Positions 42,603 through 64,000 of a stretch of DNA of 64,000 nt are shown piece by piece (the first letter of the stretch is position 1; every line of letters starts with the position of its first letter). The stretch is from a phage. The notes below the pieces were generated by a model, which saw only the letters and a program-made list of their open reading frames with translations, had not been told where the DNA came from and searched no databases. The stretch lies in the sequence record PZ445517.1, one strand, 5' to 3'. The position numbers and the translations under genes are program-made.

Positions 42603-43781
42603 TTAAAAATATTTTTTAAAACTCATCATAACTTTATCATCAACATCATTATCAATCTGTGCTACAAGGTAAGATGACAGTTCTACTTCTTGCGGCGCGG
42701 ATTGAACATTATCAGAATTAAGGTATTCACGAATCCAAGGATATGGATGTTTAACCGGAGCATCGGTAATTGGGCATGGAAGACCGCACTGTTTCATACG
42801 AGATACAGTTAAGTAATCAATAAAGCTCCACATGCTATTTGTATTTAATCCAGGAACATCACCATCTTTAAATAAATGAACTGCCCAATCTTTTTCTTGG
42901 CGGTTAACTTCCATGAAAATATCAACTGCTTCTTGTTCACACTCTTGGGCAATTTTAACCCATTCATCACCATCAATGCCAAGTTGAAGTTGACGAATAA
43001 TATATTGTGTACCTTTAAGATGAAGTTGCTCATCACGCGCAATGAACTTCATAATCTTGGCATTACCTTCCATAATTTCCATGTTCTTATGGAAGTTAAA
43101 GGTACAGGCGAAAGATACGTAAAAACGAATAGCTTCCAATGCATTGATTACATGAAGGCAAAGATAAAGAGATTTCATTAGTGCTCGTTTAGCTTCGGCT
43201 TCTTGTTTAATAGCTCGATTTAAACGAAAATCAGCATCAGGAGATTCTTTAGCTAGTTCTACAAATTCTTTAGCATTTTCCCATTCACGGGTCTTCTTAA
43301 GAACATCATCGTAATAGCGACCAATGGACTCAGCGCGTTTCATAATATCTTCATCTAATACAATCTCATCAAATACCTTTGACGGATCAGTATAAAGATT
43401 TCGCATGATATGGGTATATGAACGGCTGTGAATAGTTTCACTAAAAGTCCATGTAGCAACCCATGTATCAAGACTTGGGTCTGAAATTAACGACATAAGT
43501 ACAGCAGACGGTGCACGACCCTGAATGCTATCTAGAAGTGATTGATACTTCAGGTTATTAGTAAAAATATCTTGCTGATACTGAGGAAGCTTGTTAAATT
43601 GTGCAGCATCCATCATTAAGTTTACTTCTTCAGGACGCCAGAAAAATGATAATTGCTTTTCGGTTAAATCTTCAAAAACTTTATGGCGTTGAATATCATA
43701 ACGCGCAATACCAAGACCTGAACCGAAGAACATAGGTTCTTTTAAAACATCAACTGGATTTGTATTAAAAACTGTAGACAT
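42603..43781 (-). CDS. nrdB: aerobic ribonucleotide reductase small subunit (R2), uninterrupted
   Basis: 392-aa continuous ORF with di-iron/tyrosyl radical R2 features; no intron interruption. Confidence 0.92.
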   Translation of the reverse strand: MSTVFNTNPVDVLKEPMFFGSGLGIARYDIQRHKVFEDLTEKQLSFFWRPEEVNLMMDAAQFNKLPQYQQDIFTNNLKYQSLLDSIQGRAPSAVLMSLISDPSLDTWVATWTFSETIHSRSYTHIMRNLYTDPSKVFDEIVLDEDIMKRAESIGRYYDDVLKKTREWENAKEFVELAKESPDADFRLNRAIKQEAEAKRALMKSLYLCLHVINALEAIRFYVSFACTFNFHKNMEIMEGNAKIMKFIARDEQLHLKGTQYIIRQLQLGIDGDEWVKIAQECEQEAVDIFMEVNRQEKDWAVHLFKDGDVPGLNTNSMWSFIDYLTVSRMKQCGLPCPITDAPVKHPYPWIREYLNSDNVQSAPQEVELSSYLVAQIDNDVDDKVMMSFKKYF

Positions 43782-47468: not shown

Positions 47469-48329
47469 TTACACCGCCATTTTTCCTTTCAAGACACCAT
47501 GGGACTGATAATCTTTAAGAACGAAATCTCGCGATGTCATATATTCAGTTAACCAATACATTTGAGTTTCAGTATCGCATTGGCTGAATCCATTAGGCCA
47601 ATTAATACTGAGTTTGCACAGGTCCATAGGAGTTCTATTTAATATCTCTTTGCATTGCTCAATATGGTTAGAATAAATGTGTGTATTGCCACCCGAAAAT
47701 ACCAAATCGCCTGGAACTAGTTCACACATGTCAGCAACAATATGTAAGAGAGCAGCATAGCTCGCGATGTTAAATGGAAGACCGAGGAAAACATCTACCG
47801 AGCGTTGATACCATTGGAGGTCAAGGTATCCGTTACGAACATTAAACTGATAGAACATGTGACAAGGCGGTAATGCCATTTGCTTGAGTTCAGCTGGATT
47901 CCACGCCGACACAATTTGTCGCCTATCGTTTGGAAATGTTTTAATACGATTAACAACTTCTACAATTTGGTCTACACCGCCAAAATCACGCCATTGTTTT
48001 CCGTAAATTGGACCAAGTTCACCACTATGATAACCTAGGTCTTTGGCCTGATTTTCGTAGTTTTCATCCCAAATCGTTTTTCCAGCAATTAAGGATCCAT
48101 GAGTACGTTTACGTAGATCATTTACGTTAGTACTTCCTGATAAGAACCACAATAACTCAGAAATACACGCATTCCAGGCGAGCTTCTTAGTTGTTACTGC
48201 AGGAAAACCTTTACTTAAATCCCAGCGTAATTTAGTACCGAACAAAGCAATTGTTCCTGTGCCCGTTCGGTCATCGGTTTCATAGCCATTTTCAAAAATG
48301 TCTTTAATTAAATCTTGGTATTGTTTCAT
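47469..48329 (-). CDS. td: thymidylate synthase, uninterrupted (no group I intron)
   Basis: 286-aa continuous ORF, N-terminus MKQYQDLIKDIFENGYETDDRTGTGT, active-site region ALPPCHMFYQF. Confidence 0.95.
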   Translation of the reverse strand: MKQYQDLIKDIFENGYETDDRTGTGTIALFGTKLRWDLSKGFPAVTTKKLAWNACISELLWFLSGSTNVNDLRKRTHGSLIAGKTIWDENYENQAKDLGYHSGELGPIYGKQWRDFGGVDQIVEVVNRIKTFPNDRRQIVSAWNPAELKQMALPPCHMFYQFNVRNGYLDLQWYQRSVDVFLGLPFNIASYAALLHIVADMCELVPGDLVFSGGNTHIYSNHIEQCKEILNRTPMDLCKLSINWPNGFSQCDTETQMYWLTEYMTSRDFVLKDYQSHGVLKGKMAV

Positions 48330-52665: not shown

Positions 52666-53000
52666 AGTAGAAAATCTAATGTATTAGTTTTTTCACAACG
52701 AACAACAGAAGGACGTAAAAGATTTTCGTCAATAGCTTCTGACTGAATTTTTTCAATTATACCCGAAGGAATAAATTTAGCAAATTGAGTTTCAGGAATA
52801 GAATTTTCTTCTAAGAATGCTGTTGTAGCTTCAAGATAACTCATTCCAAACTCTTCTACCATTTTTTCAATGATAAATCCATTTTCTTGACGATCAAGAA
52901 GCTTTGCAATTTCATCCTTTTCTTTCTTAATTGAAAGTTCTTTTTCTGAAAGACCGGTCTCATCGACCGGACGAATATCATTTAGAGAAAACTGTGTCAT
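52662..53000 (-). CDS. 33: late transcription co-activator gp33
   Basis: About 112 aa from MTQFSLNDIRPV...; synteny. Confidence 0.85.
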   Translation of the reverse strand: MTQFSLNDIRPVDETGLSEKELSIKKEKDEIAKLLDRQENGFIIEKMVEEFGMSYLEATTAFLEENSIPETQFAKFIPSGIIEKIQSEAIDENLLRPSVVRCEKTNTLDFLL

Positions 53001-53247
53001 AAAGTTCAACTACCTCTTCGGTTTCAGCTTCAAACACATCACGGTTATCTTTATGATACAAAGCTAAAAGACGATTAAACATCTTACCATCAACGCCAAG
53101 TTCATCTTTGGCGCGAATTCGAATATCTTTAATCAATTCATTATAACCAGAAATTTTCAGTTTATGATCAGATGCTTCTTTGATAAATTTAGCCAAGTCT
53201 TCGCCATGGATAGCTTCATCAAATTCAACCATTTCTTTTTTAGCCAT
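52978..53247 (-). CDS. dsbA: double-stranded DNA-binding protein DsbA
   Basis: 89-aa ORF overlapping the gene 33 start; synteny. Confidence 0.8.
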   Translation of the reverse strand: MAKKEMVEFDEAIHGEDLAKFIKEASDHKLKISGYNELIKDIRIRAKDELGVDGKMFNRLLALYHKDNRDVFEAETEEVVELYDTVFSK

Positions 53248-53255
53248 TATTCACC

Positions 53256-54173
53256 TCAAAATTCATTAATGCTATTAGTTAATTTAGAAAGACCCGCTTT
53301 TACAAAATATGAATAAATTTTGCCACGCGGTGGTAATTTATATGAATTATAGTAATTCACAATGTTTGAAGCAATATTATCAGGAATATAATCAAAGTCA
53401 ATTAGAACTAAATTTTCTTTATATCGATTATATTCAGATTCAGTGAGAAGCACCTTAGCTTGCTCACGGTCATTAGCAATAGCTTCAACAATAGATGTTT
53501 TCATTGAGGGAGTTCGTTCACCTTCAACTCTGGTAAACCAAAAGTCAGATCGTACTTTAACTGAAGCAACGTTATCCTTTTTATCACCCTTAAGAATTTT
53601 AGTCATACAGTCAATTTCAGCAGAACCGCTTTTAATTTTAACCCATTTCTTATGCATCGGTGACCATTGCTTAACATTTGGATACTTGTGAAGTTGAGTA
53701 AAGTCACCATCCGATGAAATGATTAAAATCTTGTGTCCTTCTAAAGAGAACTTTTTAACAAGAACAGCAATGTGGTCATCTGCTTCATACTTATCAATAT
53801 CCATAACAATGTATGGCATATAAGCTTTCAATTCATCTATGACTTTATGGCTGGATTCAAAATAACCTTCCCAGTCCCAAGTAGATTCTTCTCGTGCTTT
53901 TCCGCGGTTTTTCTTATAATAATAAGCAAAATCACGACGCCAGTATCCGGATTTTGCGTTATCGATACACAGTACAATTTTAGTGTATCCAAGAGTTTTT
54001 GCTTTTTTGACATTAAACTTAATTGAGTTCAATATCAAATGACGAACCATTGATAAGTTAATTTTTTCTTTATCTGGAAAGTTTACTAGAGCAGTTGAAA
54101 GCGCAATTTGACTAAAGTCAATTAAGCAAATTCCTTCTTTGTAATCTTCATCCAGCATCATTTCTAAATCCAT
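53256..54173 (-). CDS. rnh: RNase H / 5'-3' flap exonuclease
   Basis: About 305 aa from MDLEMMLDEDYKEG...; FEN-family acidic clusters; early-promoter-like element upstream. Confidence 0.9.
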   Translation of the reverse strand: MDLEMMLDEDYKEGICLIDFSQIALSTALVNFPDKEKINLSMVRHLILNSIKFNVKKAKTLGYTKIVLCIDNAKSGYWRRDFAYYYKKNRGKAREESTWDWEGYFESSHKVIDELKAYMPYIVMDIDKYEADDHIAVLVKKFSLEGHKILIISSDGDFTQLHKYPNVKQWSPMHKKWVKIKSGSAEIDCMTKILKGDKKDNVASVKVRSDFWFTRVEGERTPSMKTSIVEAIANDREQAKVLLTESEYNRYKENLVLIDFDYIPDNIASNIVNYYNSYKLPPRGKIYSYFVKAGLSKLTNSINEF

Positions 54174-54202
54174 ATGAACCTCGTTCAATTAGTGAGATTT
54201 CT

Positions 54203-54232
54203 ATTATATACTATCCAAATCTTAAAGTAAAC
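54203..54232 (-). promoter_or_regulatory. early-promoter-like element upstream of rnh
   Basis: Minus strand GTTTAC, 18-nt spacer, TATAAT in the rnh/gene 34 divergent spacer. Confidence 0.45.
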
Positions 54233-54235
54233 AAG

Positions 54236-54243
54236 TATAAATA
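54236..54243 (+). promoter_or_regulatory. late promoter (TATAAATA) for gene 34
   Basis: Exact TATAAATA about 35 nt upstream of the gene 34 ATG. Confidence 0.6.
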
Positions 54244-54277
54244 CTTATTATTGAAAACACAATAGGAGCCCGGGAGA

Positions 54278-57200
54278 ATGGCCGAGACTAAAAGAAAGTT
54301 CAGAGCAGAAGATGGTCTGGACGCAGGTGGCGATAAAATAATCAACGTAGCTTTAGCTGATCGTACCGTAGGAACTGACGGTGTTAACGTTGATTACTTA
54401 ATTCAAGAAAACACAGTTCAACAATATGATCCAACTCGTGGATATTTAAAAGATTTTGTAATCATTTATAATAATCGTTTTTGGGCAGCAACGGATAATA
54501 TTCCAAAACCTGCTGGAAGTTTTAATAGAATTCGTTGGAAAGCATTACGTACTGATGCCGTATATACAACCGTATCATCTGGACCATATCAATTAAAATC
54601 CGGAGAAGCAATTTCAGTAGATACATCAGTTGGTAATGACATTGAGTTTAATTTACCGCCTTCTCCGCTTGATGGAGAAACCGTAATAATTCAAGATATT
54701 GGTGGAAAACCTGGTATAAATCAGGTTAAAATAAATTCTTCAAATCAGAGTATTGTTAATTTTAGAGGTGAACAAGTACGTTCAGTTCTAATGACTCATC
54801 CAAAGTCACAGATGATATTCATTTTTAATAATCGTTTGTGGCAAATGTATGTTGCTGATTATAGCAGAGAAGCTGCGATTGTTACTCCATCGACTGCATA
54901 TCAAGCACAATCTAATGATTTTATCGTGCGTAGATTTACTTCCGCTGCGCCGATTAATATTAAACTTCCGAGATTTGCTAATCATGGCGATATTATTAAT
55001 TTCGTTGATTTAGATAAATTAAATCCACTTTATCATACAATTGTCACGACATATGATGAAACAACTTCAGTACAAGAAGTTGGAACTCATTCTATTGAAG
55101 GCCGTACATTGATTGACGGTTTCTTGATGTTTGATGATAATGAAAAATTATGGAGATTGTTTGACGGGGATAGTAAAGCACGTTTACGCATTATAACAAC
55201 TAATTCTAATATTCGTCCAAATGAAGAAGTTATGGTATTTGGTGCGAATAACGGAACACCCCAAACAATTGAACTTCAGCTTCCAACCGATATTTCCATT
55301 GGTGATACTGTTAAAATTTCCATGAATTACATGAGAAAAGGACAAACAGTTAAAATCAAAGCTGCCGGTGAAGATAAAATTGCTTCTTCAGTTCAATTGC
55401 TGCAATTCCCAAAACGTTCAGAATATCCACCTGAAGCTGAATGGGTGACTGTTCAAGAATTAGTTTTTAACGGCGAAACCAATTATGTTCCAGTTTTACA
55501 GCTTGCTTATATAGAAGATTCTGATGGAAAATACTGGGTGGTGCAGCAAAACGTGCCAACAGTTGAAAGAGTTGATTCTTTAAATGATTCTACTAGAGCA
55601 AGATTAGGCGTAATTGCTTTAGCTACACAAGCTCAAGCAAATGCTGATTTAGAAAATTCTCCACAAAAAGAATTAGCAATTACACCAGAAACATTAGCTA
55701 ACCGTACTGCCACAGAAACTCGTAGAGGTATCGCAAGAATAGCAACTACTGCTCAAGTAAATCAGAACACCACATTCTCTTTTGCTGATGATATTATCAT
55801 CACTCCTAAAAAGCTGAATGAAAGAACTGCTACAGAAACTCGTAGAGGTGTCGCTGAAATTGCTACGCAGCAGGAAACTAATACAGGTACTGATGATACT
55901 ACAATCATCACTCCTAAAAAGCTTCAAGCTCGACAAGGTTCTGAGTCATTATCTGGTATTGTAACCTTTGTATCTACTGCAGGAGCTACTCCAGCTTCTA
56001 GTCGTGAATTAAATGGTACAAACGTTTATAATAAAAACACTAATAATTTAGTTGTTTCGCCTAAAGCTTTGGATCAGTATAAAGCTACTCCAACGCAACA
56101 AGGTGCAGTAATTTTAGCAGTTGAAAGTGAAGTAATTGCTGGACAAAGCCAAGAAGGATGGGCAAATGCGGTTGTAACGCCAGAAACGTTACATAAAAAG
56201 ACATCAACTGATGCAAGAATTGGTTTAATTGAAATTGCTACGCAAAGTGAAGTTAATACAGGAACTGATTATACTCGTGCAGTCACTCCTAAAACTTTAA
56301 ATGACCGTAAAGCAACTGAAAGTTTAACTGGTATAGCTGAAATTGCTACGCAAGTTGAATTCGACGCAGGCGTCGACGATACTCGTATCTCTACACCATT
56401 AAAAATTAAAACCAGATTTAATAGTACTGATCGTACTTCTGTTGTTGCTCTATCTGGATTAGTTGAATCAGGAACTCTCTGGGACCATTATACCCTTAAT
56501 ATTCTTGAAGCAAATGAGACACAGCGTGGTACACTTCGTGTAGCTACACAAGTTGAAGCTGCTGCAGGAACATTGGATAATGTTCTAATAACTCCTAAAA
56601 AGCTTTTAGGTACTAAATCTACTGAAGCACAGGAAGGCGTTATTAAAGTTGCAACTCGGTCTGAAACTGTGGCTGGAACGTCAGCAAATACTGCTGTATC
56701 TCCAAAAAATTTAAAATGGATTGTGCAGAGTGAACCTACATGGGCAGCTACTACTGCGATAAGAGGTTTTGTTAAAACCTCATCTGGTTCAATTACGTTC
56801 GTTGGTAATGATACAGCTGGTTCTACGCAGGACTTAGAACTATATGAGAAAAATAACTATGCAGTATCACCATATGAATTAAACCGCGTATTAGCAAATT
56901 ATTTGCCGTTAAAAGCAAAAGCTGTAGATAGTAATTTATTAGATGGTTTAGATTCACTCCAGTTCATTCGTAGGGATATTGCGCAGACGGTTAATGGTTC
57001 ACTAACCTTAACACAACAAACGAATCTGAGTGCCCCTCTTGTATCATCTAGTACTGCTACGTTTGGTGGATCAGTTTCGGCAAATAGTACATTAACTATT
57101 TCTAATACTGGAACAGCAACTCGTCTGATTTTTGAGAAAGGACCTCAAACTGGGACGAACCCAGCTCAAACGATGACAGTCAGAGTGTGGGGAAATCAAT

Positions 57201-58147
57201 TCAGCGGTGAATCGGACACAACACGTTCTACTGTATTTGAAGTTAGTGATGAAACGTCTAGTCACTTTTATTCTCAGCGCAATAAAGCTGGTAATATAAC
57301 ATTTAATATCAATGGTACAGTAACACCAATAAATGTGAATGCTTCAGGCACATTGAATGTGAATGGCGTAGCAACATTCGGCAGTTCGGTGACCGCACAG
57401 GGTGAATTTATAACCTATAGTGCAAACGCATTTAGAGCTATTAGTGGTAATTACGGATTCTTTATCAGGAATGGTGGCAGCATCACACATTTTATGCTCA
57501 CTGAATCTGGCGACCAGACCGGTGGATTTAATGGATTACGTCCTTTATCTATTAATAATGCATCTGGTCAAGTAACGATTGGTGAAAGCTTAATCATTGC
57601 CAAAGGTGCTACTATAAGTTCAGGTGGTTTAACTGTCAACTCGAGAATTCGTTCTCAGGGTACTAAAACCTCTGATTTATATACTCGTGCGCCAACATCT
57701 GATACTGTAGGATTCTGGTCAATCGATATTAATGATTCAGCCACTTATAACCAGTTCCCGGGTTATTTTAAGATGGTTGAAAAAACTAATGAAGTGACTG
57801 GGCTTCCATACTTAGAACGTGGCGAAGAAGTTAAATCTCCTGGTACATTGACTCAGTTTGGTAACACACTTGATTCGCTTTACCAAGATTGGATTACTTA
57901 TCCAACTACCCCAGAAGCGCGCACCACTCGCTGGACACGCACATGGCAGAAAACCAAAAACTCTTGGTCAAGTTTTGTTCAGGTATTTGATGGGGGTAAC
58001 CCTCCTCAGCCGTCTGATATCGGTGCTTTACCATCTGATAATGCTATAATGGGGAATCTTACTATTCGTGATTTCTTACGAATTGGTAATGTTCGCATTA
58101 TTCCTGACCCAGTGAATAAAACGGTTAAATTTGAATGGGTTGAATAA
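54278..58147 (+). CDS. 34: long tail fibre proximal subunit gp34
   Basis: 1289-aa ORF, same length as T4 gp34; internal tandem sequence repeats; late promoter upstream. Confidence 0.93.
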   Translation: MAETKRKFRAEDGLDAGGDKIINVALADRTVGTDGVNVDYLIQENTVQQYDPTRGYLKDFVIIYNNRFWAATDNIPKPAGSFNRIRWKALRTDAVYTTVSSGPYQLKSGEAISVDTSVGNDIEFNLPPSPLDGETVIIQDIGGKPGINQVKINSSNQSIVNFRGEQVRSVLMTHPKSQMIFIFNNRLWQMYVADYSREAAIVTPSTAYQAQSNDFIVRRFTSAAPINIKLPRFANHGDIINFVDLDKLNPLYHTIVTTYDETTSVQEVGTHSIEGRTLIDGFLMFDDNEKLWRLFDGDSKARLRIITTNSNIRPNEEVMVFGANNGTPQTIELQLPTDISIGDTVKISMNYMRKGQTVKIKAAGEDKIASSVQLLQFPKRSEYPPEAEWVTVQELVFNGETNYVPVLQLAYIEDSDGKYWVVQQNVPTVERVDSLNDSTRARLGVIALATQAQANADLENSPQKELAITPETLANRTATETRRGIARIATTAQVNQNTTFSFADDIIITPKKLNERTATETRRGVAEIATQQETNTGTDDTTIITPKKLQARQGSESLSGIVTFVSTAGATPASSRELNGTNVYNKNTNNLVVSPKALDQYKATPTQQGAVILAVESEVIAGQSQEGWANAVVTPETLHKKTSTDARIGLIEIATQSEVNTGTDYTRAVTPKTLNDRKATESLTGIAEIATQVEFDAGVDDTRISTPLKIKTRFNSTDRTSVVALSGLVESGTLWDHYTLNILEANETQRGTLRVATQVEAAAGTLDNVLITPKKLLGTKSTEAQEGVIKVATRSETVAGTSANTAVSPKNLKWIVQSEPTWAATTAIRGFVKTSSGSITFVGNDTAGSTQDLELYEKNNYAVSPYELNRVLANYLPLKAKAVDSNLLDGLDSLQFIRRDIAQTVNGSLTLTQQTNLSAPLVSSSTATFGGSVSANSTLTISNTGTATRLIFEKGPQTGTNPAQTMTVRVWGNQFSGESDTTRSTVFEVSDETSSHFYSQRNKAGNITFNINGTVTPINVNASGTLNVNGVATFGSSVTAQGEFITYSANAFRAISGNYGFFIRNGGSITHFMLTESGDQTGGFNGLRPLSINNASGQVTIGESLIIAKGATISSGGLTVNSRIRSQGTKTSDLYTRAPTSDTVGFWSIDINDSATYNQFPGYFKMVEKTNEVTGLPYLERGEEVKSPGTLTQFGNTLDSLYQDWITYPTTPEARTTRWTRTWQKTKNSWSSFVQVFDGGNPPQPSDIGALPSDNAIMGNLTIRDFLRIGNVRIIPDPVNKTVKFEWVE
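55650..56720 (+). repeat. in-frame tandem repeats within gene 34
   Basis: DNA motif actgc(c/t)acagaaactcgtagaggt recurs about 130 nt apart; protein motif ITPKKL...TETRRG.AEIATQ repeated about seven times. Confidence 0.7.
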
Positions 58148-58155
58148 GAGGTATT

Positions 58156-59271
58156 ATGGAAAAATTTATGGCAGAGTTTGGACAAGGATATGTCCAAACG
58201 CCATTTTTATCGGAAAGTAATTCAGTAAGATATAAAATAAGCATAGCGGGTTCTTGTCCGCTTTCTACAGCAGGACCATATGTTAAATTTCAGGATAATC
58301 CTATCGGAAGCCAAACGTTCGACGCAGGTCTTCATTTAAGAGTTTTTGACCCTTCCACAGGAGCATTAGTTGATAGTAAGTCATATGCTTTTTCTACTTC
58401 AAATAATACTACATCAGCTGCTTTTGTTAGTTTCATGAATTCTTTGTTAAACAATAGACTTGTTGCTATATTAACTAGCGGAAAGGTTAATTTTCCTCCT
58501 GAAGTGGTATCTTGGTTAAGGGGAGCAGGAACTTCAGTTTTTCCATCAGATTCCGTATTGTCAAGATTTGACGTATCATATGCTGCTTTTTATACTTCTT
58601 CTAAAAGAGCTATTGCATTAGAGCATGTTAAACTAAGTAATAGAAAAAGCACAGATGATTATCAAACTATTTTAGATGTTGTATTTGATAGTTTAGAAGA
58701 CGTTGGAGCTACGGGATTTCCTAAAAGAACATATGAAAGTGTCGAGCAATTCATGTCAGCGGTTGGTGGAACTAATAACGAAATTGCGCGATTGCCAACT
58801 TCAGCTGCTATAAGTAAACTTTCTGACTATAATTTAATTCCTGGTGATGTTCTTTATCTTAAAGCACAGTTATATGCTGATGCTGATTTACTTGATCTTG
58901 GAACTACAAATATATCCATTCGTTTTTATGATGCATCAAATGGATATATTTCTTCAACACAGGCTGAGTTTACTGGACAAGCTGGATCTTGGGAATTAAA
59001 GGAAGATTATGTAGTTGTTCCTGAAAATGCAGTCGGATTTACTATATATGCGCAGAGAACTGCTCAAGCTGGTCAAGGCGGAATGAGGAATTTAAGCTTT
59101 TCTGAAGTATCAAGAAATGGCGGCATTTCAAAACCTGCCGAATTTGGCGTCAACGGTATTCGCGTTAATTATGTCTGTGAATCGGCTTCACCTCCAGATA
59201 TAATGGTACTTCCTACACAAGCCTCTTCTAAAACTGGCAAAGTGTTTGGGCAAGAATTTAGAGAAGTTTAA
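58156..59271 (+). CDS. 35: long tail fibre hinge protein gp35
   Basis: 371-aa ORF; synteny. Confidence 0.88.
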   Translation: MEKFMAEFGQGYVQTPFLSESNSVRYKISIAGSCPLSTAGPYVKFQDNPIGSQTFDAGLHLRVFDPSTGALVDSKSYAFSTSNNTTSAAFVSFMNSLLNNRLVAILTSGKVNFPPEVVSWLRGAGTSVFPSDSVLSRFDVSYAAFYTSSKRAIALEHVKLSNRKSTDDYQTILDVVFDSLEDVGATGFPKRTYESVEQFMSAVGGTNNEIARLPTSAAISKLSDYNLIPGDVLYLKAQLYADADLLDLGTTNISIRFYDASNGYISSTQAEFTGQAGSWELKEDYVVVPENAVGFTIYAQRTAQAGQGGMRNLSFSEVSRNGGISKPAEFGVNGIRVNYVCESASPPDIMVLPTQASSKTGKVFGQEFREV

Positions 59272-59276
59272 ACTGA

Positions 59277-59294
59277 GGGAGCCTTTGGGTTCCC
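59277..59294 (+). terminator. hairpin plus T-run after gene 35
   Basis: GGGAGCC-tttg-GGTTCCC (one G-U pair) followed by TTTTTCTTT, immediately before the gene 36 late promoter. Confidence 0.5.
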
Positions 59295-59302
59295 TTTTTC
59301 TT

Positions 59303-59310
59303 TATAAATA
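59303..59310 (+). promoter_or_regulatory. late promoter (TATAAATA) for gene 36
   Basis: Exact TATAAATA about 24 nt upstream of the gene 36 ATG, after a hairpin. Confidence 0.6.
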
Positions 59311-59333
59311 ATATTAAAATAAAGGGGCATATA

Positions 59334-60023
59334 ATGGCTGATTTAAAAGTAGGTTCAACTGTGGGTGGATCTGTCATTTGGCATCAAGGAAATTTTCCAT
59401 TGAATTCAGCCGGTGACGATGTACTCTACAAATCATTTAAAATATATTCAGAATATAATAAACCACAGGCAGCTGATAACGATTTCGTTTCTAAAGCTAA
59501 TGGTGGCACAAAGTCTGGAGGTTTCCAAAAAGAAGTAGAATTTAAAGAAGGCGTTAAAATTTCTGCAACGTTTTCTAATGGTTCAGACCTGAATGGGTTA
59601 TATTCTGGCAATGGAGATGGAGCTTCCAGAGAAAAAGCTAACATGGATTTACATTCATGGTACGGCATTGGTATTTGGAACACATGCACAGGTGATGGGA
59701 TCCAGGGACGCACAATCTGGTTTAATGCCAGGCGTGGTACAATTGAAACAGTTGGCGATATTGTTTCGGGCCGACAAGTTATTTCTAATGCTTCAGTACC
59801 GACCGGCCCAGCACACTTAACTCGCAAAGATTATGTCGATGGAGCAATAAATACTGTTACGACAAATGCAAACTCTAGAGTGTTACGATCTGGTGACACC
59901 ATGACAGGAAATTTAACTGCGCCAAACCTTTTTTCACAGAATCCTGCATCTCAACCTTCACACGTTCCACGATTTGACCAAATCGTGATTAAGGATTCTG
60001 TTCAAGATTTCGGCTATTATTAA
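59334..60023 (+). CDS. 36: long tail fibre distal small subunit gp36
   Basis: 229-aa ORF; late promoter upstream; synteny. Confidence 0.88.
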
Positions 60024-60031
60024 GAGGACTT

Positions 60032-63000
60032 ATGGCTACTTTAAAACAAATACAATTTAAAAGAAGCAAAACTGCAGGTCAACTTCCTGCTGCTTCAGTA
60101 TTAGCCGAAGGTGAATTGGCTATTAATTTAAAAGATAAAACAATTTTCACAAAAGATGACTCAGGCAATGTTATAGAATTAGGTTTAAAATATGGAGGAA
60201 CAATTGATGGTTCTTTAACTGTTAATGGAAATATAACTGGAACTTTAATTGGAAATTCTAGCACAGCTACTAAATTGCAAACACCTAGGAAAATTAATGG
60301 TATATCCTTTGACGGGTCAAAAGATATCACGCTAACTCCATCTGACATAAATGTCAATAGCACAACGTTTATAAAAAATAACGGCGAATTACCTACTAAT
60401 GCTAATTTAGATACGTATGGGCCCATTGAAGAATATCTTGGTGTTTGGTCGAAATCTACTTCAGTAAATGCGCAACCAGCAAATAAATTCCCAGAAGAAA
60501 ATGCCGTAGGTGTATTAGAAGTATTTGTGGCAGGCCAATTTGCTGGCACTCAGCGTTATACTGTTCGGTCTGGTAACGTTTATATTCGTTCCTTATCTGC
60601 TAAATGGAATGGCGTAGATGGTCCGTGGGGTGTATGGCGTAATGTTCAAGCGTCAACTCGTCCACTTTCACAAACGATTGATCTTGATAGCTTGGGAGAA
60701 TTAGAACATTGTGGCTTATGGCGAAACAGTTCAAGCGCAATCGCATCATTTGATCGCCATTATCCAGAAGAAGGATCAGCCGCACAAGGATTTTTAGAAA
60801 TATTTGAAGGTGGTTTATACACGAGAACGCAGCGATATACTACCCGCATGGGTATGGTTTATACTCGTTGTCTCGCTGCCGCATGGGATGCTAGCGCACC
60901 TAAGTGGGAGGAATGGAAGCAGGTTGGTCATGGCACACCAGCGACTTTCTATGACGGAGATCTGAATGATTTTAAAACTCCTGGGTTATATAATATTTTA
61001 GGCACTGATGCCGTTATTAACTGTCCTACCGGCGAAGGTTTGCCGACTGTTATTGTTGGTTTGCTGGAAGTTAAACAACGTGCTTCTGGCGGTGCTATTT
61101 TCCAAAAATTTACTACTGCCGGAACGGGTGCAACTACTCGCGATCGTATTTTTGAGCGTGCATATACTGGTGGTGTGTGGGGTGCATGGAACGAAGTATA
61201 TACGTCCTATTCTATGCCGATCACTCTGGGTATTGGTGGTGTTAAATCTCAATTAGCGGAGCTAGATTGGAACACATTTGATTTTGTTCCTGGCAGTATG
61301 TTTAGCGTTCCCTTGAACAAAATAAAGAATATGCCAGCAAATATGGATTGGGGCACGATTGATGGAAACCTGGTTATGTTTTCCGTTGGACCAAGCGAGA
61401 GTGACGGAACAGGTCGAACAGTTCAATTATGGCGTGGCAGAGCAACACAATCAGACTATCGTTATTTTGTTGTTCGTATTACTGGACCTTTGGCGAATAG
61501 AACTTGTACAGCTCGACGCGTTGTTCTTGAAGATGGTCGCCACACATGGACAGCTCAACAAGATTTTAATGGTGCTGTTAACTTCGGTGCTCCTACCAAT
61601 TTTAACTCTACTGTTAACCTTAATAACACTACCACTTTTAAAACAGAAGTTAAATTCCGCTCATCTAATGCATTCCGTATGTATGCCGGAAAATTTGGTA
61701 CAATTTTCCGTAATGATGGAGAGAGTCTTTATATTCTTTCCACCGACGAAGATGATCAAGCTGGAAACTTTAATACAAATAGACCTTTCCGTTATGAATT
61801 AAGAACTGGTGATGTTACTTTGGGTGGTGCTGTTGGTGCTAACGTTTTAATTTTAAAACGTGATTCTCTCACCGCATTTTTTGGCGGTGATATTAACATG
61901 AAAGGCACGATGACTTTTGACGCCGGGCGTTTAGGATCACGAGATTATTTTAAATTTAACCATTGGGGTGATAGTAATAATGCTCGTGATAACATCATCC
62001 AGTTAGAAGATAGTCAAGGCGCCCATTTTTCCACTGAACGTACTTTAGCGACAGGTGCAATTAAAACTCGTTTCTTTGGCGAAACATTCACTGATGGTAC
62101 ATTATACCTAAATCAGATGAATAATAGCTCTGAACGATTCTCTATTAATAATTGGGGAAATTCAGAAGTTGGTCGCGCGGCAGTGATGGAAGTCAGTGAT
62201 TCCAAAGGTTATCACTTCTATACGGAACGCAGGACAGATAACAGTTTGAATTTTGATGTTGCTGGCAATTTTACTGCGCATGGACCTTCCGGAATAACCA
62301 TCAAAAACTCAACTGGTGCACGACATATCTGGTTTAGAGATGATAGCGATGCAGAAAAGGCTGTTATCTGGGCTACAGATGAGGGTATTTTACATATTCG
62401 CAATAATCATGGGGGTTCATTTAGTCATCACTTCCAGGGTGCAATGATTAAAGCGGGAGAGCGTGTTCCATATAATGGTGAATACGCTCTTATCCGTGGT
62501 GATATTTCAGGTGGTGCATGGGTAGACTGGCGAGAGCGTCCGGCTGGATTGTTGGTAGACTGTCAGGACTCACGAAATCAAGCATATAACATTTGGAAAG
62601 CTACTCATTGGGGCGAACAGCACCTTGCGGCGATGGGTGTTCATGCTGGCGGTGGTAATCCTCATGTTGTATTGCATGTGGCTGGGAATGATTATGCATT
62701 TGCATTTAACGGTGATTTTACTGCTGGTGCTGCTGTATATTGTAACGACGTTTATATTCGTTCTGACCGTCGTCTGAAAATTAATGTTGAAGACTACGAA
62801 GAGAATGCGGTGGATAAGGTAAATAAACTCAAAGTTAAAACCTATGATAAAGTTAAATCTCTTTCTGACCGCGAAGTTATCGGCCATGAGATTGGTATTA
62901 TCGCACAGGATTTGCAAGAAGTATTACCGGAAGCTGTTAGCACTTCTAGTGTCGGATCTCAGGATAACCCAGAAGAAATTTTAACAATTTCTAACTCTGC

Positions 63001-63115
63001 TGTGAACGCGCTTTTAATTAAGGCTATTCAGGAAATGAGTGAAGAAATTAAAGAATTGAAAACGCCTCTCTTTACTAAAATTGCTCGCAAAATTAGTAAA
63101 TATTTTAAATTCTAA
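60032..63115 (+). CDS. 37: long tail fibre distal large subunit gp37 with C-terminal intramolecular chaperone-like domain
   Basis: 1027-aa ORF; last ~117 aa ([31 protein letters not shown] ... [20 protein letters not shown]) resemble the autoproteolytic chaperone domain of tail spikes/fibres. Confidence 0.9.
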
Positions 63116-63121
63116 CAACAA

Positions 63122-63136
63122 GGGGGAAATGCCCCC
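63122..63136 (+). terminator. hairpin after gene 37 (GGGGG-aaatg-CCCCC)
   Basis: 5-bp G/C stem 6 nt after the gene 37 stop, followed by TTTGG. Confidence 0.45.
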
Positions 63137-63151
63137 TTTGGAGTATAAATT

Positions 63152-63931
63152 ATGGCAGTAGTTGGAGTTCCTGGCTGGATTGGAAGTTCAGCCGTAAATG
63201 AAACGGGTCAGCGCTGGATGAGTCAAGCAGCTGGTCAATTAAGATTGGGTGTTCCTTGCTGGATGAGTCAATTTGCAGGTCGCTCAAGAGAAATTATTCA
63301 TACACTTGGAGCAGACCATAACTTCAATGGTCAATGGTTCCGAGATAGATGTTTTGAGGCAGGTAGTACACCTATAGTGTTTAATATCACTGGAGATTTA
63401 GTATCATATTCTAAAGATGTTCCTTTATTCTTCATGTATGGAGATACACCGAATGAATATGTTCAGTTGAATATACACGGCGTAGCGATGTATGGCCGTG
63501 GCGGTAATGGCGGTAGCAATAGTCCTGGTTCAGCTGGCGGTCATTGTATTCAAAACGATATTGGTGGGAGACTAAGAATTAATAATGGCGGAGCTATTGC
63601 TGGAGGTGGCGGCGGCGGAGGCGGCGGCAACAGGGGTAGACTATCCTTTGGCGGCGGAGGCGGTCGTCCATTTGGCGCTGGTGGGTCTTCCTCTCATATG
63701 AGTGCTGGTGCAACCTCCGGCACTATTTACGCTCCGGGTGCAGGATCTGTCGGTGAGGGGTCTCTTAGTGCATATACAGGCGGGAATGGCGGTGAAGTTG
63801 GCTCCGCAGGAGGTAGATGTAATACTCACGGTACCGGTACAGAATATGACGGCGGTGCTGCTGGTTATGCCGTCATAGGGTCTACGCCGACATGGCAAAA
63901 CGTTGGAGCAATATATGGTCCAAGAGTATAA
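63152..63931 (+). CDS. 38: T2-type gp38 receptor-recognising adhesin with glycine-rich motifs
   Basis: 259-aa ORF, N-terminus [30 protein letters not shown]; several poly-Gly islands ([23 protein letters not shown]) separated by variable segments. Confidence 0.88.
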
Positions 63932-63961
63932 TTTGAATAAATATCCTTAAAAGGAGGGTCT

Positions 63962-64000
63962 ATGGCAGCACCTAGAATATCATTTTCGCCCTCTGATATT
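63962..64000 (+). CDS. t: holin t, 5' end only (truncated by window edge)
   Basis: ATG after AAGGAGG site; first codons MAAPRISFSPSDI match the T4 holin N-terminus. Confidence 0.8.
   Translation, partial: MAAPRISFSPSDI

Follow-up and report, generated by a model that had tools for sequence, protein, structure and literature searches.

By sequence comparison, the g37-g38 gene pair of this phage is an ordinary, well-described receptor-binding tip of a T-even long tail fibre. We put the probability at about 0.93 that it is the distal receptor-recognition module of a T2/T6-type fibre, including self-cleavage of gp37 and docking of gp38. By now the architecture is textbook material (Drexler 1986; Trojet 2011; Dunne 2018). 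The pair carries little weight as a discovery: how such a tip is built, how gp37 is processed and what the gp38 hypervariable loops do has been established knowledge since the 1980s, with structures solved (6F45, 9V85), and GenBank already holds the exact sequence. The practical value lies in annotation: a cleavage site, a T6-type dock and a probable OmpA specificity can be assigned to two genes which the deposited record calls simply “Phage tail fiber protein” and “Phage tail fibers”. Such an annotation is useful for host-range prediction or for choosing cocktail phages. The refinement added to the preliminary description of this DNA is a specificity domain predicted, from its identity to the FL12 and FL20 adhesins, to be of the OmpA type.

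Gene layout and features

A deposited genome, that of Escherichia phage T4_ev240, matches the window (the whole stretch of 64,000 nt that was analysed) at 100% identity. The ORF map places g37 at 60032-63115 (+; product of 1027 aa, 113 kDa as the full precursor) and g38 at 63152-63931 (+; product of 259 aa, 25.9 kDa), with 63931 being the final base of the stop codon. Together with the annotation, it gives the gene order g34-g35-g36-g37-g38-t, such that g38 sits directly downstream of a gp37 ending in an intramolecular chaperone (IMC) and upstream of holin t, on whose side “MAAPRISFSPSDI” begins at 63964. The same g37-g38 arrangement is present in hundreds of sequenced phages. The preliminary description had located the start of the gp37 tail at position 62762, and this is exact to the base: the TCT codon of Ser911 begins there, and residues 911-1027 make up the 117 aa it gave. 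Both peptides that it quoted are found in the translation of the gp37 ORF, and its 259-aa gp38 ending at 63931 matches the ORF. Identity to T4 across g34-g35 is ~91.6%, and hence the phage is simply a different Tequatrovirus; the idea of an evolved T4 with an imported tip module was rejected. Two minus-strand ORFs inside the genes, both with TTG starts (62570..62917, 115 aa; 63641..63898, 85 aa), were set aside as antisense artefacts of the coding sequence.

The spacer between the two genes places a Shine-Dalgarno sequence 8 nt upstream of the g38 ATG. Its GC hairpin (-14.9 kcal/mol) is no more stable than expected from shuffles (z = -1.28, not significant) and was dropped as a terminator or regulator; no + strand terminator was called. 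Counts in a promoter and terminator consensus scan of 62500-64000 were no higher than in shuffles, and scans of the whole window with Rfam (at the gathering threshold) and for tRNAs gave no matches.

Table. Features of the g37-g38 module, with positions in the window
Feature	Position	Strand	Basis or detail
Predicted mature gp37, long tail fibre distal subunit, residues 1-910, ~99.8 kDa	60032..62761	+	ORF, PHROG 1699, computed mass, S16/T2/T6 alignment
Predicted autocleavage site Arg910↓Ser911 and dyad Ser911 (62762-62764)/Lys916 (62777-62779), motif R↓SDRRLK	62759..62779	+	Alignment, cited dyads
C-terminal intramolecular chaperone (IMC, Peptidase_S74), residues 911-1027, 13.2 kDa, plus stop codon; predicted release after trimer folding	62762..63115	+	Pfam, PHROG and PDB matches
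g37-g38 intergenic spacer	63116..63151	+	GC hairpin, 63122-63126 pairing with 63132-63136; Shine-Dalgarno GGAG, 63140-63143
gp38 N-terminal attachment domain, residues 1-42, T6/RB32 subtype, W9/W22/W37	63152..63277	+	Pfam PF21721, alignment
gp38 body, residues 47-259 plus stop codon, predicted beta-helix and polyglycine (PGII) sandwich	63290..63931	+	PF05268, PHROG 2056, PDB 9V85/6F45_D
gp38 specificity domain, residues 113-259, glycine-rich motifs alternating with hypervariable segments; predicted receptor OmpA (“type 2”)	63488..63928	+	Identity to FL12/FL20

The chaperone domain of gp37 and the adhesin gp38

gp37 matches PHROG 1699, “long tail fiber protein distal subunit” (E=7e-177). The resemblance of its tail to the intramolecular chaperone domain of tail spikes, noted earlier from the letters alone, is borne out by a full-length family match: the tail by itself hits Pfam PF13884, Peptidase_S74 (“chaperone of endosialidase”), with E=5.4e-16 and 59.1 bits against a curated cut-off of 22 bits, aligned over profile positions 1-57 of 58 with Ser911 as its first residue. 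Searched with the whole of gp37, the match falls at residues 911-969 (E=1e-14). The 117-aa tail also matches 36 PHROG tail-fibre and tailspike families, always at their extreme C-terminal end. Among solved structures, the gp37 C-terminus matches S16 gp37 (6F45_A, 1e-12) and, weakly, the MYRF ICA domain (7DC3, 0.03).

By alignment, Arg910↓Ser911 (the arrow marks the cleavage position) falls on the cleavage site of S16. The junction reads DVYIR↓SDRRLK in the window, DLNVS↓SDRRIKK in S16, NVYIR↓SDIRLKS in T2 and DVYIR↓SDSRLKI in T6, and the Ser with a Lys five residues downstream is kept in all of these and in NBG2. The catalytic Ser comes first in SDRRLK and the Lys follows at i+5; by motif, Ser911/Lys916 is the i/i+5 catalytic dyad of the Peptidase_S74 family. 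In this family an upstream Arg or Asp from a neighbouring subunit forms the oxyanion hole, and in K1F and T5 an arginine stabilises the oxyanion. In the window gp37, Arg910 occupies P1; the sequence does not single out an equivalent of that arginine, and a single-sequence AlphaFold2 model of residues 851-1027, with a mean pLDDT of 35.8, is too poor to use. The corresponding dyads, and the Ser-Lys mechanism, have been described for T5 pb1 (S1264/K1269; PMC4690869) and MYRF (S578/K583; PMC3742443). The autocleavage site of S16 gp37 has been reported, and cleavage has been predicted at the identical DVYIR↓SD junction of fPS phages (PMC7917993). For the homologues S16 and T2 there are reports of autoproteolytic release, and T2/T6-type gp37 is described as cleaved. 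On this analysis, gp37 very probably sheds its C-terminal domain by self-cleavage of the Arg910-Ser911 bond.

gp38 belongs to the adhesin families. It matches Pfam PF21721, Gp38_N (E=9e-21, 74 bits), and PF05268, GP38 (E=8.9e-70, 235 bits), with cut-offs of 25 bits each, as well as PHROG 2056, “tail fiber protein; host specificity” (E=2e-108). Among solved structures, it hits the adhesins from PP01 (9V85, 1.2e-77) and S16 (6F45_D, 1.7e-53). Its attachment domain is 98-100% identical to those of T6, RB5 and RB32 and 65-67% identical to those of T2 and FL12. W9, W22 and W37 are invariant across the gp38 proteins of the window, T2, T6, S16 and NBG2; the role of the S16 tryptophans has been described (PMC6851490). 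Alignment of both proteins with T2, T6, K3 and Ox2 had been proposed. In those with T2 and T6, the junction, Ser/Lys and gp38 Trp columns are conserved; RB32 (annotated “similar to Ox2, T6, M1”), RB5, FL12, FL20, PP01 and S16 were the characterised comparators used in place of K3 and Ox2.

The poly-glycine islands ascribed to gp38 are real. Glycine makes up 24.7% of the protein, and 34.7% of residues 113-259 versus 11.6% of residues 1-112, with 12 runs of at least two Gly that include G9 (151-159) and G5 (167-171). When the C-terminal part was shuffled 10,000 times, a run of nine arose in only 35 cases; short runs do not exceed the number that composition predicts (5,115 of 10,000 shuffles). 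In the C-terminal half, conserved glycine blocks (including GGAAG) alternate with variable segments, and the differences among homologues lie mostly between the conserved glycine motifs. Hypervariable segments of gp38 have been found by experiment to set host range (PMC3157838, PMC12032242); this and the variation among homologues agree with the earlier suggestion that the segments between the islands are the likely host-range determinants. The polyglycine-II sandwich fold is suggested by sequence homology to 6F45_D and 9V85; the single-sequence AlphaFold2 model of gp38, with a mean pLDDT of 29.9, is too poor to use.

Proposed assembly and its alternatives

How would such a tip be assembled? 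gp37 would be made as the full-length precursor, and the Peptidase_S74 chaperone formed by its last 117 residues would nucleate folding of the trimeric beta-helical tip and act as a check on it. In a correctly folded trimer, Ser911, activated by Lys916, would then attack the bond that precedes it, and the chaperone trimer would depart. Its release is predicted to expose a flat tip of three DVYIR strands, the docking face for gp38. A single gp38 would then dock through its N-terminal helical attachment domain, with Trp9, Trp22 and Trp37, giving a predicted 3:1 stoichiometry. The rest of gp38 would form a short beta-helix carrying the polyglycine-II helix sandwich, and the hypervariable loops between the PGII helices would contact an outer-membrane protein of the host.

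Two other arrangements would dispense with part of this scheme. gp38 could be an assembly chaperone, as in T4, with the gp37 tip itself binding the receptor. The gene does occupy the position of T4 gene 38 and the GenBank record is named “T4_ev240”, but similarity to T4 gp38 is absent (best BLASTP E=1.8 over 22 residues), while the matches to adhesin families and solved adhesin structures are strong, and gp37 has no similarity to the T4 gp37 tip and lacks the C-terminal needle domain of T4. This makes a T4-like chaperone extremely improbable, and the assignment to T2/T6-type rather than T4-type architecture, made in the preliminary description, stands. The label itself can be narrowed: gp38 has a T6-type attachment domain, together with a specificity domain that appears to be a “type 2” OmpA-binding variant, not that of T2 (FadL/OmpF) or T6 (Tsx). 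T4 has the same gene order, and its gp37 is homologous at the N-terminus (79% over residues 1-66) and in the shaft repeats; the difference is that T4 gp37 has its own receptor-binding needle without an IMC, and that T4 gp38 is an unrelated chaperone. Alternatively, the C-terminal domain of gp37 could be a degenerate, non-cleaving relative of the chaperone that is retained on the mature fibre, with gp38 binding elsewhere or only transiently. In favour of this, IMC identity is only ~36% to T2 and ~32% to S16. Against it, the entire SDxRLK motif is conserved, Ser911 and Lys916 included, the Pfam profile is matched over its full length, the junction is the one discussed for cleavage in PMC7917993, T2/T6-type gp37 is cleaved by report, and gp38 has kept intact the three-Trp N-terminal domain by which the S16 adhesin docks on its cleaved tip. 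We consider retention of the domain very unlikely.

Predicted receptor and closest relatives

The receptor of gp38 is most probably OmpA. The specificity domain is 100% identical to that of NBG2, 97% to that of FL12 and 89% to that of FL20, and it has the short HVS2 “NRGRLS” and the GEGS insertion in HVS3 in common with FL12 and FL20; this places it in the “type 2” OmpA-binding cluster of FL12, FL18 and FL20. Infection by FL12 and FL20 depends on OmpA by experiment (Lutz et al. 2025, PMC12032242). The Tsx-binding T6 and RB5 are 78-80% identical over the same domain, and relative to them gp38 lacks 5 aa of HVS2 and has 4 additional aa in HVS3. Closeness to FL12/FL20, at a distance of two indels from T6/RB5, is why OmpA is the predicted receptor. 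Could the module be built as described and yet recognise Tsx, like T6, or another outer-membrane protein? Overall, gp38 is 87% identical to T6, type 2 OmpA binders have been described as recent derivatives of Tsx binders (PMC12032242), and five substitutions separate the specificity domain from that of FL12 (S165V, S189A, N212S, T228A and D233N). One of these concerns residue 189, modelled as an OmpA contact in the FL12/FL20 study (PMC12032242), which is Ser in the window and Ala in FL12. Two or three substitutions in the hypervariable segments can change or extend specificity (T6 versus PST, PMC3157838). Given this and S189, the OmpA call is uncertain. Even so, the identity of the specificity domain and the two FL12/FL20-specific indels argue against Tsx or a further receptor, a possibility that we hold to be appreciable but clearly the less likely one.

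Among known systems, the S16 gp37-gp38 tip (PDB 6F45; Dunne et al. 2018) resembles the predicted module in its two genes, in a gp37 IMC with an S↓SDRRIKK-type junction and in a gp38 with a three-Trp attachment domain, a beta-helix and a polyglycine sandwich. It differs in sequence (52% identity for gp38, ~32% for the gp37 tip), in P1 (Arg here, Ser in S16) and in serving as the OmpC-type reference in the comparison, whereas OmpA is predicted for the window gp38. T6, with RB5 and RB32, is closer, having the DVYIR↓SD junction, the same tail at the end of the IMC and a gp37 shaft 92% identical in DNA, in addition to the attachment domain; T6 differs in the hypervariable segments (the HVS2/HVS3 indels) and in the gp37 tip that precedes the cleavage site. 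The type 2 gp38 proteins of FL12/FL20 (PMC12032242) and of vB_EcoM_NBG2 have a specificity domain of the same length with the same indels, but FL12 carries a T2-type attachment domain (67% identity over residues 1-46). Finally, the IMCs of K1F endosialidase, T5 pb1 and MYRF (PF13884, MEROPS S74) likewise lie at the C-terminus, carry a Ser-x4-Lys dyad and have a tail that is helical and coiled-coil-like. Release here would unmask a dock for a separate adhesin, not a receptor-binding or enzymatic tip.

A bolder reading, which we consider improbable, has two separate parts. The five substitutions relative to FL12, including S189, could have given the adhesin, which vB_EcoM_NBG2 also carries, a receptor range unlike that of the characterised type 2 OmpA binders (for example, dual OmpA/Tsx use or other OmpA loop variants). 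Separately, the gp37 tip and IMC are 40% identical to a T5-like siphophage fibre without a gp38. This likeness may be the trace of a cassette of tip and chaperone that passed between myophages and siphophages, the tip then being turned into a dock for an adhesin.

Gene order and the gp38 adhesin

Gene order, family memberships, motif conservation, and the nearest characterised relatives of the gp37/gp38 module were established in this analysis. The ORF map of the window identifies the region as the 3' end of the T-even phage long-tail-fibre operon. Across g37–g38 (3.9 kb), there is 100% identity with GenBank LR597657.1, Escherichia phage T4_ev240, a Tequatrovirus, where the two genes are labelled only "Phage tail fiber protein" and "Phage tail fibers." Its labelling of g34, g36, and t as "hypothetical protein" is likewise poor.

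Coordinates of the long-tail-fibre genes and of other genes discussed
Feature	Coordinates	Strand	Description
nrdB	42603-43781	-	single uninterrupted ORF, 392 aa
td	47469-48329	-	single uninterrupted ORF, 286 aa
gp34 ORF	54278-58147	+	1289 aa
gp35 ORF	58156-59271	+	371 aa
gp36 ORF	59334-60023	+	229 aa
gp37 ORF	60032-63115	+	1027 aa
gp38 ORF	63152-63931	+	259 aa; the stop codon ends at 63931
holin gene t	start at 63964	+	after gp38; from ORF map/sequence

The g37–g38 spacer (63116–63151) contains a GC hairpin, GGGGG-AAATG-CCCCC (63122–63136), downstream of the g37 stop codon and ahead of the g38 ribosome-binding site. It is followed by just three T, its folding energy is no better than that of shuffled sequence (z = −1.28), and a promoter/terminator consensus scan of 62500–64000 found nothing above chance. 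In the hinge protein gp35, residues 58–112 give a weak but above-threshold match to Pfam ILEI (interleukin-like EMT inducer, PF15711; 31.3 bits, cut-off 27).

The preliminary description of gp38 as an adhesin of the T2/T6 type, with poly-glycine islands separated by variable segments, is borne out. Residues 1–42 match Pfam Gp38_N (9e-21), residues 47–259 match Pfam GP38 (9e-70), and the protein matches PHROG 2056, "tail fiber protein; host specificity" (2e-108), as well as the solved adhesins of PP01 (9V85, the gp38 structure, PMC12892980; 1.2e-77) and S16 (6F45_D; 1.7e-53). It is not of the T4 chaperone type: T4 gp38, used as a negative control, has no similarity (E = 1.8). Glycine makes up 24.7% of gp38 and 34.7% of residues 113–259, in twelve runs that include G9 and G5. 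The nine-glycine run is rare by chance (35 of 10,000 composition-preserving shuffles); short runs are simply as numerous as composition gives in the shuffles. Homologue alignments reveal conserved blocks (GRGG, G7-9, GGGGGRP, GNGG, and GGAAG) with varying segments between them, the pattern of glycine-rich motifs and hypervariable segments (HVS) of Trojet et al. (PMC3157838). Aligning gp38 with its T2, T6, S16, and vB_EcoM_NBG2 (NBG2) counterparts shows W9, W22, and W37 to be invariant; in S16 these tryptophans insert into pockets of the gp37 tip (PMC6851490).

The gp37 chaperone domain and its junction

The gp37 tail was thought to start at 62762 and to resemble an intramolecular chaperone domain of about 117 aa. 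Position 62762 is exactly the first base of the Ser911 codon, the quoted peptides are present, and residues 911–1027 make up 117 aa. This tail matches Pfam PF13884 (Peptidase_S74, "chaperone of endosialidase"; E = 5.4e-16), with profile position 1 falling on Ser911. It also aligns with the very C-terminus in 36 different PHROG families, which comprise fibres, spikes, PblB, and hyaluronidases; a portable C-terminal module would be expected to behave in this way. Compared with solved structures, the C-terminal 217 aa of gp37 match S16 gp37 (6F45_A, 1e-12); the MYRF ICA domain (7DC3) and a further phage fibre (8JOV) are weak matches. Further upstream, shaft residues 522–587 (61595–61792) match Gp34_trimer (PF21446, E = 1.8e-14), a domain common to proximal and distal half-fibres.

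In an alignment of gp37 with the same four phages, the junction DVYIR/SDRRLKI falls on S16 DLNVS/SDRRIKK, T2 NVYIR/SDIRLKS, and T6 DVYIR/SDSRLKI. S16 gp37 loses its final 113 residues by autocleavage between the two junction serines, exposing the gp38 docking surface, and cleavage in fPS phages is predicted after an identical DVYIR (PMC7917993). Cleavage has also been reported for gp37 of the T2/T6 type. Ser911 and Lys916 have the Ser-x4-Lys dyad spacing known from T5 pb1 (S1264/K1269; PMC4690869) and from MYRF and endosialidases (S578/K583; PMC3742443).

How might the module work? By analogy with S16, T2, T5, and K1F, the chaperone domain would aid and proof-read gp37 trimer folding, the R910–S911 bond would be cut by Ser911/Lys916, and the 13.2-kDa domain would depart. 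The DVYIR tip would receive one gp38 via its three tryptophans, and the polyglycine-sandwich loops may bind an outer-membrane protein. The general chaperone gp57A would also be required, as in T4 and S16.

Mosaicism and the predicted receptor

Judged from nucleotide identity, g37 is a recombination mosaic (59820–64000), with a T6-like shaft (59820–62083, ~92% identity to T6 g37) and a tip that, together with g38, is NBG2-like (61883–64000, ~93%). RB32/RB33 are 96% identical throughout g37 and for ~290 nt into g38, diverging from the start of the specificity domain. The last 217 aa of gp37 (pre-cleavage tip plus chaperone domain; 62462–63112) are 40% identical to the fibre C-terminus of the T5-like siphophage PNJ1902 (locus L011, 2800–3639), which has no gp38-like gene downstream, which suggests transfer of tip-plus-chaperone cassettes from one phage family to another.

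Identity of gp38 homologues to the window gp38 (attachment domain, residues 1-46; specificity domain, residues 113-259)
gp38	Attachment	Specificity
NBG2	100%	100%
FL12	67% (T2-type)	97%
FL20	98%	89%
T6	98%	78%
RB5	98%	80%
RB32	100%	49%
T2	65%	48%
S16	54%	51%

Relative to T6 and RB5, HVS2 has lost 5 aa and HVS3 carries an inserted GEGS in the window, FL12, and FL20 alike. Deletion mutants show that FL12 and FL20, "type 2" phages with a narrow host range, need OmpA (PMC12032242). Because the specificity domain and these indels match those of OmpA-dependent phages, we predict with moderate confidence that the gp38 receptor is OmpA. Five differences separate the specificity domains of the window and FL12 (S165V, S189A, N212S, T228A, and D233N); position 189 is one modelled OmpA contact (PMC12032242), and shifts in specificity caused by two or three HVS substitutions are on record (PMC3157838).

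Spread of the module and relation to T4

Matches occur in 818 phage records for gp38 and in 1,539 for the gp37 tail, and this arrangement has been described as predominant among T-even phages (PMC3157838, PMC6851490). We rate the module as already known, since nothing departs from the known system; the exact sequence is already public.

The similarity of T4 gp37 to the window gp37 is confined to the N-terminal 66 residues and some repeats of the shaft; the tip is not shared. The td and nrdB genes of T4 contain introns. These group I introns seem to be absent here, because both genes are uninterrupted and no Rfam family, group I introns included, was found anywhere in the window; a tRNA scan of the window found no tRNA genes. 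The rnh-g34-g35 region (53000–59509) is ~91.6% identical to T4 and 94.3% to T6, and the source phage bears a T2/T6 fibre tip rather than a T4 tip, making the name "T4_ev240" misleading.
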